Positions 12,865-64,000 of a DNA stretch of 64,000 nt are shown here, piece after piece; position 1 is the stretch's first letter; every line of letters begins with the position of its first letter. A program made the position numbers and the translations under genes. The DNA is taken from the NCBI GenBank assembly GCA_012295275.1, contig CM022679.1, forward strand, positions 31,000,001-31,064,000, given 5' to 3'. Source of the stretch: Chrysomallon squamiferum (lineage: Eukaryota; Animalia; Mollusca). The notes below the pieces were generated by a model. That model saw only the letters and a list, made by a program, of their open reading frames with translations, did not search any database and was not told where the DNA came from.

Positions 12865-15800
12865 TTATCTCTTCAGTAGTTTGTAACATTCTCTTTTTCT
12901 TAGATCTCTCACTGCTCTGAACTAAAACAAAGAAAATAAATAAAAATGTCAAGGAAATATATATATATATATCAATGACTAAATCAACAAATAATGAGTT
13001 GCCTACGATTAAACCATTTGGAAATTTTAACCGGCGATTTTTTTTTTTATCCTTATCCAGTCATTATTCTGCCATCTAGCTTTCTCTCTGAATCAATCAT
13101 ATATTTATCTTTTTGTTTCTTCATATTAATATGAACTTAAAATATACTTTACTTACGTATCAGACCGGACTGATCGCCTACCCACACTGAAAACAAAAAA
13201 TGGAAATATTTTATCGAGTGCAACTTTTCGTTGAATACAAATCTTAACCAGGCACAGTTTAACGTTTACCTCAGTTTGACATTGTCAGTAATATACAGAG
13301 TTGATATCTCAGACATAAAGCGTCTCTTCATTCAGGGATGTTTACCTTTTGTGATTATCACTCGTATAGTGGAACTACCCGTCATTTTACGTTCAGTTGC
13401 ATCTATCTTACGTAGGATAAATTAATGTTAACTTAATGGATCTATTCCAAGTTTATTACATCATGAACAAAATAAGGAGATTATAAATTATTCTCGTATT
13501 ATGAACAATAATATACTTTAATTTAACAGCCTTTGTGGATATTGTTATTATTGTTGTTATTATTGCTATTATTATTATGATCATCGTTATTATTATTTAT
13601 TTATTTATTTATATATTTATTTTATTATTTATTATTTATTATTATTAATTAATTTATTTATTTTAAATAATATAACATGTTCTGTCACAATATTAGATGA
13701 ACTGAAATCTACTTCATTATTGTTAAAATGGTATTAGTCTATTATTTAGGGGGATATTTGATAAGTTTGCCGAGATCAAGAACAGAATCGTCATATTAAA
13801 AAATAGATAAAATATCATTTTGTCCTCTTTTCACTTTAAAACAAGTTACTACTGAGATATAACTTTTCCAGTTCTTAATACGTGTTCGAAAACAAAGGCA
13901 CAAAGTGATGTAATAGTGCTGAATTATTAGTGATGTCATTTATGTTAGGGCTTAACAGAATGATACTCACAAAAGCGGGTTATAACCACGATACCTGTAT
14001 AAAGTAGAAAAACAGTCAGGATGAATAATTCTGCAGTTCAAGAATATGAATTCATTTTTTTAGTTATTTTACTAGTAAATTTACTGTATAGGAAAAAGCA
14101 AAGTAAATGTAACAACAATAGTACGACTAAAATATATTTCATACACACACACATACATACATACATACATACATACATACATACATACATACATACATAC
14201 ATACATACATTCATACATAGAAGGATAATTTTCTCCTTGCTGTGATGTAAAATAAATAAAATATATAAATGAAATACATACAATCACAAATAAAATATAA
14301 AAGTAAAACTATTATGTTTTATACCTTAGTATGAGATAATATTAAGAGAATAAAAATACATAAAAAACAAGAATGAGAGATACGTAGAGATACAAAGAAA
14401 TAAAAAAACAACAAAATAATAATAAAAACTAAATAAAAAAAAGAGATATATAGGAGGACATCTTTTCCATCCACTAATAATATAGTGAGAACATTTTAAT
14501 GTTTATGTGCCTTATTTCTTACAGGTATCTGTATTAAAAGAAAGACAAGAAGAACAAAACTTAATAAAAGTAGAAGATTATTTTATTTCCTATATGTTTT
14601 TTAATACTCAATGAATATATATATATATATATATGTATGTTTGTATGTATGTATGTATGTATGTATGTCATTTATATATTTGATTTATTTAGTTTATTTA
14701 TTTTACTTTAGAGCGGGTAGAAAACTATGTTTCTATCTATCTATCTATCTATCTATCTATCTAACTATCTATATATCTATCTATATATATATATATATAT
14801 ATATATATATATATATATATATATATATATATATATATATATATATATATATATATAAACATACACACATATGAGTTTCTTATAACTAAAGTATTCGGAA
14901 ATTTTAATGAGGGATTATTATTTATCATTAAACAGCCATAGTGCTGCCATCTAACTTTCTCTCTGTGTCAAACATATATTTATTTCTTTGTTTTTTCATA
15001 TTAATGTGGACTCAAAATATACTTCACTTACCTTGGAAAGGCGATTGATCGCCTACTCGGGCTGAAAATAAAAATTGAAATATTTTACTGAGTGCAGCTT
15101 TTCGATGAATACAAATCTTAACCAGGCACAGTTTAACGTTTACCTCAGTTTGAAATTGTCTCTAATATACACATTTGATATCTCAGACATAAAGTGTCTG
15201 TAGTCGATCATTCAGGGATATTTACCTTTTGTGATTATCACTCGTATAGTGGAACTATCCGTCATTTTACGTTCAGTTGCATCTATCTTACGTAGGATAA
15301 ATTAATGTTAACTTAATGGACGTATTCCAAGTTTATTACACAATGAACAAAATAAGGAGATTATAAATTATTCTCGTATTATAAACAATAATATACTTTA
15401 ATTTAACAGCCTTTGAGGATAATTGTTATAATTGTTCTTGCTGTTGTTGTTATTATTACTATTATTATAATGATCATATTATTATTATTATTATTATTAT
15501 TATTATTTATTTATTTATTTTTTATTTTAAATAATGTAACATGTGCTGTCACAATATAAGATGAATTGAAATCTACTTTATTACTGTTAAAATGGTATTA
15601 GTCTATTTATCAAAAGTCAGTCAAGAAAGAAGACACACACACATATAAAGACACACACACACATATAAAGACACACACACATATAAAGAGACACACACAT
15701 ATAAAGACACACACACACATATAAAGACACACACACACATATAAAGACACACACAGAAACACAAACACTCAAATGGATTTTGCCTGAGACGCGTCTCAGT

Positions 15801-61000: not shown

Positions 61001-64000
61001 GATAGAAAAATACAAAGACAGATAGATAGATAAATAGGTGCATATATTGACAGATAGATAGATAGATTATAGATAGATAGAAATATAGATGTAGACTGAT
61101 ATAGATAGATAGACAGACAGATAGAGAGATAGACACATATACAGCTAGATAGATGTATACTACATATAGAGATACTTTGATAGATACATTGCTAAATAAA
61201 TACAGATATACAAACATTTATGACAGACATACAAAAAGAGAACTCGACAGAATACACAGAGCAAATTAATTATAAAATAAATTTATGAAAATTCGATGTT
61301 TAATCGTTTCACCTGTCACAAACTTTACATTTATTTTGCTTTTATATTTTTATGCCACAGTAATTTGTTATATATCACACGTTTGATTCATTATTACTGC
61401 GTCCGTGCATCATTATAAATACCTCGTGCCAACGATATTGCACATATTGTTACAGCTAGATCATTGAATATTACAACTACTTCTGGTAAGTTATTTTCGC
61501 TTTATAATTATTTTTTGAATATAAAATTCTAAAAAGTAGTAAATATTTCGAATAGTTGGAAAAAGTTTAAAATCTCAGGGAAATATGTTAAAGGGATTAA
61601 AGAGAGAATACCATATTTATTTTCGTTTCTCTGTTTTCAAGATCCATATTAAATAATGTTAGAAATTAAATATTTTTTCTCTTAATTCAGAGCGCTAAAC
61701 ATTAAATGTTTACTTTGCAGTTTGTAATTAACAGTTGACGTTGTTCACCATGTTTGCGTTGAAACTGCAAATTATCCTGCTCTTGATTATTTTGGGATCA
61801 GTGCAGGTCGAATTAATGCCTGACAGGTAAGTTTCGTTTTCCCTTTTCCTGTTCAGTGCAGTTGAATGTGAGACGGGTGAATGAGTGCAAAATAAAATAC
61901 TTTCTTTAGTGCTCTGGATTGTAGGTGTAATTAAATATATTTGTAATAATCTTAATCTATTCCAATACAAATACGTATATGGAATTATAAGAAATAAAAC
62001 CTTTCATCTAAATAGGTAAAACGTTTCTTATTATATGGCTTTAATTATATACATGTAATTTTAATAGTATTTTTTAATATTATTATTATTACTACTACTA
62101 CTTTCCTATATTTGTTATTATTATTATTAATTGTTTTGTATCACTAGTCACTTTTTTGCTATTTCATTTGCGTCTGACTTACTCTACGTCACTATGAGAG
62201 TTTTTTACTTAAAATTGTTCGTAAGAATAAAACACATATAATGTAATTCTAGTTAAAGGAATATATTCATGTTAAGAAAACTATGAAGATGTAAAATGAA
62301 ACTATGTAAGATAAATCGTAAAACTGAATACTGTTTTCTGCCACTTGAAGTCTAATAAATGAATTATTTAAACTCGGAGTTACAAAGTTTTTGATGATTT
62401 TGTAGCTGTCGTTAGTTCATCATTTAGCAATACAAATTCAGAGACCATCCTTGATAATATCCCTCAAAGTGTTCATATTAATAGTCATACTTTTAGGGAC
62501 CCAAACTAGTCATTAGAAATTTATTGATAACGTTACAGAAAAAAATATATATAATACAATGCAACACTATCGATAATCGAGTACTGGAATCATTAAATAT
62601 ATTAAGAATTTATGTTAGTAATAAACGGAAGGTTCCGCATTAGAATGAACATTAATTAGGTTAGTAATGCAATATTTTGTTTTTGCATACATTCGGTATT
62701 AAAAAACAAAGCAAGATAGTTTCACTCTAGGCTGTCATTTTGAAGGTATAATATCATATCAAATAAAAAAAGCTATTTTTACTAACGTTTATACCCTTTG
62801 TCTTTCTTTTAATACGCATATCCATAAGAATTACTATTTCTCTCTCTCTCTCTCTCTCTCTCTCTCTCTCTCTCTCTCTCTCTCTCTCTCTCTCTCTCTC
62901 TCTGCCTCTATCTCTGCTTCTCCTTCTCTGTGTGGATGACTCTCTGTATCTACAGCTTTTTATGCCCTTTACATACAATCCAGAAATAACCAACACTTCT
63001 CTCCTCACAAATATATACAATTTTTTCACAGACACTCACAAATACACACACCTATAGAAACACAGATATTTTTGGAATTATTCACCTGAGTGTTTATTTT
63101 CTTTGTACAGCAGCCCATTCACTCTGTGTGTATGACTCTCTGTATCTATAGCTTTTTATGCCCTTCACATACAATCCAGAAATAACCAACACTTCTCTCC
63201 TCACAAATATATACGGTTGTTCTCCCATGTGGACACTCAGACACTCACAAATAGACACACACATAGAAACACAGATATTTTTGCAATTATTCACCTGAGT
63301 GTTTATCTTCTTTGTATAGAGCTGCCTTCTTGCCGTGAGTATCAATCTTTTAATCCCTAACATAAATCACGTCACCAATAAATCAGAACTATTAGATCAG
63401 CTTTTGTCTCTTTTCTTCCCACACCTATTACGAACTGCACAGTACATATATCAATAACAACTTTTATTCTTCAACGTGTTATTTTTTTTACTTGTTAATA
63501 TCACTCTTCTGTTGTTCATCTCTGTGTTTTTGAGTGATTATGTGTGTCTGTTTTCTTTCTTAACAGAGCCTTGATAAATAATAGACTAAATACCATTTTA
63601 ACAATAGTAGTGTAGATTAGGGTCCATCAAACATAGTAACAGCAAATGTAATACTATTTAAAATAAATAAACAAATAAATTAATAAATGATTACAATAAT
63701 GATAATGGCGATCATGATAATAACAGTAATTAAAAACAACAAGCGCAATACCAACAATAATATCCACAAATAGCTGTTAAATTAAAGTGTATTACTGTTT
63801 ATAATACGAGAATAATTTATAATCTCTCTATTTTTTTAGAATAAAATTGGAATATGTCCAGTGAGTTAATGTTAATTTATTCTGGATAAGATGGATCCAA
63901 CTGAAAATAAACTGACTGATGATGCCAGTATTCGAGTCATAATCATATAAATTAAACGTCCCACAATGTTGGTCTAGAGACAATGTGTGTATATTGCAGA
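58071..64000 (+). repeat. Near-identical direct duplicate of about 45716-51671
   Basis: Colinear match across the spacer, promoter module, signal exon and first micro-exons. Confidence 0.88.
61750..63334 (+). CDS. Micro-exon gene copy E (5' part; runs off the window end)
   Basis: TATA 61414-61421, donor 61486, signal exon 61750-61826 ([25 protein letters not shown]), and micro-exons 63111-63125 and 63320-63334 identical to copy D. It may be an allelic or assembly duplicate. Confidence 0.6.

Follow-up and report, generated by a model that had tools for sequence, protein, structure and literature searches.

Micro-exon genes (MEGs) of schistosomes encode a signal peptide followed by a coding region made up mostly of very small symmetric exons. 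They occur as tandem, species-specific duplicates, a contrast between a fast-changing mature region and a slower signal region has been reported, and they have been described as restricted to platyhelminths (PMC4350168). The present analysis concerns 64,000 nucleotides (nt) of DNA from Chrysomallon squamiferum (GenBank assembly GCA_012295275.1, contig CM022679.1, positions 31,000,001 to 31,064,000, forward strand), referred to as the window, in which a family of duplicated genes has a comparable layout. The observed pattern is genuine, and it very probably represents a family of coding genes. Its micro-exons, 30 canonical islands predicted to be symmetric in phase 2-2, are on balance likely to be spliced into secreted precursors, the predicted source of short C-terminally amidated, neuropeptide-like peptides.

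Other described systems share single traits with this locus. Conotoxin genes have 1-6 exons, and their mature exons are 2.9-fold more diverged than the flanks (bioRxiv 10.1101/107672). Cone snail venom also holds RFamide mimics, doppelganger peptides such as the conorfamides (PMC13311285). Oyster CCK1/CCK2 carry RF- and RW-amide on one precursor (PMC6219549), shrimp sulfakinins end in YGH(M/L)RF-amide (PMC7212414) and the RFamides of molluscs have been ascribed to five genes (PMC4208409).

As far as its predicted structure goes, the snail family works like a MEG without being a member of that group. The host is a gastropod, no sequence link was found, the signal exon has no Pfam or protein match and the predicted products resemble polyprotein precursors that carry amidation sites. 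The MEG-like layout and the independence from flatworm MEGs that had been proposed in a preliminary description of the locus are supported by sequence tests, as is the length, frame and splice-site constraint of the exon-like islands; the independence follows from the gastropod host. What is new is the joining of MEG-type architecture with predicted prohormone-type processing. If true, a large, fast-evolving family of micro-exon peptide precursors in a snail would break both the flatworm restriction of MEGs (PMC4350168) and the five-gene account of mollusc RFamides (PMC4208409). It would also mean that annotation pipelines overlook whole secreted-peptide families. Literature searches, in which subscription journals were thinly covered, found no account of such a family.

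Length, splice sites and frame of the islands

An unbiased scan of 12.8-64 kb for a pyrimidine-rich C/TAG acceptor followed by a GTRAG donor returned 50 rows, 29 of them exactly 15, 24 or 30 nt long. With a 39-nt ceiling, 29 of 48 rows have these lengths, against a mean of 0.31 (maximum 2) over 100 shuffles. The final inventory, drawn from the scan, profile searches and inspection, holds 34 islands, close to the 36 or so first described. A CAG or TAG acceptor is present in 30 (13 of 15 nt, six of 24 nt and 11 of 30 nt), with 16 GTGAGT donors, 13 GTAAGT and one GTCAGT. The islands are 58% GC, compared to 29% for the region. The AG-to-GT borders hold for all 30 canonical islands, 29 of which have GTAAGT or GTGAGT donors. 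Four further islands of 30 nt have GAG as their sole acceptor. Exact length is likewise the rule but not universal, as there are off-length islands (Table 1) and copies that lack an acceptor or donor, near 22700, 23138, 50770, 55250 and 63100.

The reading frame is set independently by six signal exons, which end 83, 89, 83, 83, 77 and 77 nt past the ATG, all in phase 2 as previously noted. Stops in phases 0, 1 and 2 number 10, 1 and 0 among the 30 canonical islands, and 10, 5 and 0 among all 34; phase 2 is the sole stop-free phase, again as described. The coordinates of the five islands that had been given as examples of stops in the other phases are all correct, but 34285-34314, one of the two phase-1 examples, is a GAG-acceptor island. 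The preliminary description had also named the opposite case, that of islands free of length or frame constraint; within the window the islands show length enrichment and no phase-2 stop.

The predicted signal peptide combines a basic N-terminus with a hydrophobic core, and the Kyte-Doolittle mean over 7 residues reaches 4.2. Five of the six signal exons are preceded by a TATA box and a non-coding first exon, giving five promoter-bearing copies, A-E. Both elements had been ascribed to every copy, which fails for the second signal exon of B (no promoter and a weak GTAATT donor), and the first-exon donor of B is lost (TTAAGT). The terminal exons with AATAAA reported for A, B and C are present in all three, and the canonical exons of A, C and D read open throughout. 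Transcription would proceed from the TATA promoter through the non-coding first exon and signal exon into tandem exon-plus-intron modules, and end in the terminal exon with AATAAA. Each module consists of an intron, 235-1442 nt long in A, C and D, and a micro-exon.

Two exon types alternate. Body exons, 15 or 24 nt long, have a high content of Tyr, Pro and acidic residues. The 30-nt tail exons encode the last two, variable, peptide residues, a Gly-Arg-Ser signal and a basic spacer, which together with the next exon forms an R-x-x-R site. The Gly-Arg(-Arg)-Ser amidation and cleavage motif recurs across exons, in line with the earlier suggestion of a MEG-like family, whose neuropeptide-like products are predicted. 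The body exon would supply the peptide body and the tail exon its amidated end, the two parts lying on separate exons. Both kinds of exon are symmetric, so that exon skipping would mix bodies and ends in frame. With the division placed at an exon border, the mixing of peptides by splicing becomes open to a direct test.

Divergence of exons and flanks

Divergence was counted over 27 equal-length copies in three classes, on trees built from the flanks only; two shortened 15-nt body exons of C, the GAG class, copy E and all off-length islands were omitted. Differing sites amount to 150 of 555 (27%) in exons and 275 of 3990 (6.9%) in flanks, with a Fisher p <1e-7 in each class. Transversions alone give 101/555 (18%) and 147/3990 (3.7%), respectively. 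CpG hypermutation was ruled out as the cause of exon divergence, since CpG transitions make up only 10 of the 150 exon changes. The minimal number of substitutions across the family is 106. In simulation, random substitution at the observed level leads to 3.6 expected phase-2 stops, and the probability of none is 0.017.

Over the first 22 codons of the signal exon, six pairs of copies were compared and each shows differences at 1-3 of 66 nt. Variability starts just past them: in four of the six pairs the codons there vary in sequence or length. Arg and Ser occupy invariant columns in 10 distinct tail exons and follow a Gly in nine of them, while the two columns before the Gly hold five and six different residues. 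In seven C/D copies of the tail exon, the proportion of non-synonymous differences (pN) is 0.158, compared to a synonymous proportion (pS) of 0.03. Fast islands beside a fixed signal peptide and a fixed Gly-Arg-Ser argue for the pattern of conotoxins and schistosome MEGs, and not for a decaying repeat. The likeness to conotoxins and conorfamides extends to a gastropod multigene family, a conserved signal exon, RFamide-like ends and mature exons whose divergence exceeds that of the flanks about 3-4-fold. Unlike conotoxin genes, the genes described here have up to 14-17 micro-exons and several predicted peptides per precursor, and no venom apparatus is implied.

Sequence outside the window comes mainly from run X1, the library type of which is unrecorded; it is probably DNA, because its contigs run through introns. 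Unique-looking contigs have a depth of about 46-52. Summed depth, which is no copy number, is 2080 for the signal exon, 2621 for the promoter and 4500-5500 for micro-exon flanks, which hints that the gene exists in tens of copies and that modules occur roughly in the per-gene proportion of the window. Depth drops over the micro-exons themselves, to 191 between flanks of 1251 and 1195, and to 1054 between flanks of 4480 and 5088. Within a stretch of 181 bases, 10 of 26 variant rows sit in the 15-nt exon, where the sole gaps total 3 nt, in one contig that also has a GC donor. In one contig, gaps that add up to 6 nt lie where the signal exon ends, as in D and E. In the metatranscriptome contig sets X2-X4 no exon was covered in the two stretches compared, which is evidence neither way.

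The modules are repetitive and contain microsatellites, and for some of them X1 depth points to about a hundred copies. They could be taken for a non-coding repeat or a non-autonomous, Helitron-like transposon, with GC-rich islands that mimic exons. However, the islands change faster, not slower, than the flanks, yet keep their length and splice sites. The orientation of the modules always agrees with that of a promoter and signal exon, the three are proportionate in X1 depth, and no module was found in bases 1-12800. A hairpin or Helitron-end origin was ruled out, as folding better than that of shuffles (p<0.05) was seen in 2 of 28 islands only; the sole CTRR is the reverse of the acceptor. 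A repeat or transposon origin is thereby left with an extremely low probability.

Predicted peptides and their possible action

Precursors were predicted by joining exons by coordinates. Gene A gives a precursor of 67 amino acids (aa) with one FV-amide, or of 80 aa with the other terminal acceptor. When the GAG islands are skipped, gene C gives 126 aa and four amidated peptides; their inclusion raises this to 156 aa and seven peptides. Gene D is open only when its 29-nt island is skipped, and then yields three or four predicted amidated peptides. With the GAG islands left out, A, C and D together are predicted to yield eight peptides, ending in FV, PF, RW, RF, RF, GW, RW and RP. They have 13-17 residues after the last predicted cut and a net charge of -3 to +2, several being acidic. 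Five of the eight have Gln or His as their first residue and are preceded by an R-x-x-R site.

Secreted peptides of molluscs are known to undergo convertase cleavage, Arg removal and Gly-dependent amidation (PMC5577615). In the snail family, a prohormone convertase, a carboxypeptidase and PAM would by the same steps release the eight amidated peptides. Such processing is likely.

Several observations weigh against the main reading as a whole. The predicted precursors are strongly basic, with isoelectric points (pI) of 9.6-10.8, unlike typical prohormones, which have acidic spacers. Most predicted cleavage sites are a single Arg, and one tail exon of A lacks the Gly. In the 15/24-nt classes, divergence at synonymous sites comes close to that at non-synonymous ones (pN/pS 0.458/0.438, 0.137/0.125 and 0.459/0.321), so selection on amino acids alone is not demonstrated for the body exons. 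Gene conversion homogenising the introns could account for part of the exon/flank contrast, which was counted among related copies, with tree edges not fully independent, and on islands preselected for intact length. Dead material is also common: B, the remnant copy, the GAG class and the 29-nt and 25-nt islands. Together with the GTCAGT donor of D, this decay would fit a once-active family the window copies of which are now mostly or wholly silent. Gene A, on the other hand, is complete and canonical, and the 14 in-frame exons of C and nine of D are stop-free despite the 106 substitutions. Silence of all or most copies is accordingly considered improbable.

With processing into amidated peptides taken as the likely course, the fast change of the peptides would most likely reflect outward action on the receptors of mates, predators, parasites or symbionts, and not a housekeeping neuropeptide. 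An outward-facing receptor-ligand role, with a secreted ligand of a G-protein-coupled receptor (GPCR), is tentatively favoured. If true, the family would point to an arms race in vent snails involving mating, predators, parasites or symbionts. A bolder proposal, which is unlikely though worth stating, is that tens of genes and their splicing make a combinatorial library of hormone-like peptides, with exchangeable body exons spliced to exchangeable exons for the amidated end, and that the fast-evolving products act outward on the RFamide/sulfakinin receptors of other animals, for instance by mimicking satiety signals against crustacean predators or by serving as allohormones in mating. It would constitute a MEG-type diversity generator for neuropeptide mimicry in a free-living, non-venomous mollusc.

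The peptide ends also recall hormones acting inside the animal. The C precursor joins RF and RW ends, and N-terminal Gln and Tyr beside acidic residues add to its resemblance to oyster CCK1/CCK2 (PMC6219549). One C peptide carries Tyr-Gly-x-Leu-Arg-Phe-amide as in sulfakinins, a motif-level likeness that extends to 1-2 of the eight peptides and that the others misfit. Two of the eight, both from C, end in YLRF-amide like snail FaRPs (PMC4208409). A lineage-specific expansion of an endogenous CCK/sulfakinin or FMRFamide-like gene, still signalling within the animal, would explain these points. However, the GGGRF/GGGRW core occurs in none of the predicted peptides and their ends vary freely (FV, PF, GW, RP). 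No peptide ends in FMRF or FLRF, and the repeated (F/Y)(M/L)RF-amide pattern of the FaRP gene is not seen. The mature part is hypervariable and exists in tens of copies, unlike the five single RFamide genes of molluscs (PMC4208409). Such an expansion is therefore considered quite improbable.

Antimicrobial or symbiont-controlling peptides, comparable to the myticalins, have a somewhat better though still low standing as the product of these genes. Myticalins are hypervariable amidated peptides with a conserved signal peptide, a non-coding first exon, a Gly/Arg amidation signal and pseudogenes (PMC5577615), all of which have counterparts here. The snail genes are multi-copy and hypervariable, their predicted peptides are amidated and rich in Arg, Pro and Tyr, and the uncut precursors have a net charge of +3 to +18. 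In addition, a sequenced peltospirid keeps endosymbionts in a gland (PMC7142155). Against this stand the charge of the final peptides, -3 to +2, and the gene structure: myticalin genes have three exons, with the mature peptide on the signal exon, and yield one strongly cationic peptide (pI above 11) with an anionic extension (PMC5577615).

Tyr makes up 6-15% of the predicted mature region, which is basic and of low complexity. Such Tyr-rich compositions are common in tanned molluscan matrices, and the genes could encode a Tyr/Arg-rich protein that stays unprocessed and has a structural role in shell, scale, periostracum or mucus. The invariant Gly-Arg-Ser behind variable residues is instead a processing pattern, and diversifying change would be unexpected in such a protein. 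The family is also unmentioned in the accessible parts of a peltospirid shell and scale proteome paper and its searchable supplements, a weak point against this very improbable reading. More broadly, the accessible parts of two peltospirid papers (one of them PMC7142155) do not mention the family, and no short-motif match occurs in the searchable parts of their supplements, which perhaps hold no protein sequences. Supplement 1 of PMC7142155 lists an FMRFamide receptor and a pyroglutamylated-RFamide-receptor-like gene as raised in column OG of a peltospirid expression table; no link to the family is shown.

Gene copies and surrounding sequence

The copies and their exons are listed in Table 1. 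A and B stand head-to-head, as do C and D, D being an inverted paralogue. Gene C comprises about four tandem 3.2-kb units. Copy B is probably a pseudogene, because its first-exon donor is lost and its islands are off-length. Neither B nor the remnant appears to be alive, and the GAG islands probably are not either: this class is decaying in D (one copy of 29 nt, one without an acceptor), which suggests that they are probably skipped. If the four GAG islands were spliced, they would add extra short GRF-amides and present a case of an inherited non-canonical acceptor.

Table 1. Features of the micro-exon family and the neighbouring receptor gene, in window coordinates
Feature	Position	Strand	Details
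Gene A, complete, sites all canonical	12861-17006	-	TATA 17006; non-coding exon ends 16936; four micro-exons
A signal exon	16416-16498	-	coding part 83 nt, phase 2; ATG 16498
A micro-exon, 24 nt	16075-16098	-	body type
A micro-exon, 30 nt	15032-15061	-	tail type, dibasic site without Gly
A micro-exon, 24 nt	13971-13994	-	body type
A micro-exon, 30 nt	13157-13186	-	tail type, Gly-Arg-Arg-Ser
A terminal exon	12861-12921	-	acceptor 12921 or 12916; AATAAA 12866
Copy B	19814-24853	+	signal exons 20331-20419, 20661-20743; one intact 30-nt exon 22426-22455; terminal exon from 24796, AATAAA 24848
B off-length islands	24029-24050; 24590-24614	+	22 nt; 25 or 31 nt
Remnant copy	25737-28030	both	(+) first-intron sequence without signal exon; (-) one module
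Remnant, intact 30-nt exon	27054-27083	-	
Gene C	30717-44184	-	TATA 44184; non-coding exon ends 44113; signal exon 43848-43766; terminal exon from 30771, AATAAA 30722
C canonical micro-exons, n=14	31922-42437	-	low coordinates in next three rows
C 15-nt exons	42423, 41326, 40351, 39179, 38084, 37051, 35903, 33860, 32704	-	
C 24-nt exon	34790	-	
C 30-nt exons	41639, 38397, 35112, 31922	-	
C GAG-acceptor 30-nt islands	34285-34314, 37581-37610, 40822-40851	-	identical to each other
C 25-nt hybrid island before terminal exon	31147-31171	-	in-frame stop, would end the protein if used
Gene D	49136-57594	+	TATA 49136; non-coding exon ends 49207; signal exon 49472-49548
D 15-nt exons	50991, 53528, 55840	+	53528 with GTCAGT donor
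D 30-nt exons	51753, 54296, 56593	+	
D 24-nt exons	52078, 54627, 56921	+	
D GAG-class islands	53071, 55250, 57565	+	53071-53099 off-length (29 nt); 55250 no acceptor; 57565-57594, 30 nt, GAG acceptor, identical to the three of C
Copy E, near-duplicate of D	61414-64000	+	TATA 61414; signal exon 61750-61826; 15-nt exon 63320-63334; runs past window end
Intronless rhodopsin-class GPCR, 334 aa	8511-9515	+	7tm_1; outside micro-exon family

The 3′ end of D is lost in the single gap of the window, 200 N at 57871-58070. Across this gap, the D region 45719-51671 and the E region 58077-64000 are 94-98% alike, gaps included, and E perhaps represents another haplotype of D, placed in tandem. The last D unit before the gap (57297-57729) is 98-99% complementary to the C units 40687-41119 and 37446-37878, nearer to these than to the other units of D, reflecting either recent conversion or misassembly. 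The spacers upstream of the genes (17100-19800, 44200-49100 and 58070-61400) are 86-96% conserved and partly inverted, which suggests that whole head-to-head pairs were duplicated as units. Spacer sequence upstream of the genes also holds a 31-nt low-GC stretch running from AG to GTAAG in three copies, 45125-45155 (+), 48190-48220 (-) and 60472-60502 (-), bearing no relation to the family exons.

As had been anticipated, the family is invisible to annotation based on open reading frames (ORFs): it is absent from the ORF lists of the window and from protein searches. The signal exon, a weak query of only 30-40 aa, had no protein database match at 71-2000 aa or at 22-70 aa, none at E<=0.001 among 1.84 billion representatives and no usable Atlas match. 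Pfam had no family for four signal exons, Rfam gave no match, and metagenome contigs matched neither a 22-nt signal-exon pattern nor the GPCR gene.

The window as a whole consists of AT-rich DNA of animal type, with long microsatellites and a GC content that mostly lies at 21-40% per kb. Its sole long ORF with a family match is the GPCR gene, the best matches of which are Gigantopelta aegis proteins (66%, 63% and 59%), followed by limpet proteins at 33-35%. This closeness places the host gastropod near the peltospirid vent snail Gigantopelta. The receptor is of orphan type, from a group expanded in peltospirids; it lies 3.3 kb from the 3′ end of gene A and is a possible synteny anchor in relatives. 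To the left of it, 2554-2615 (-) and 5530-5579 (-) are exon-like stretches of ordinary size with an acceptor and a donor, perhaps parts of another gene.

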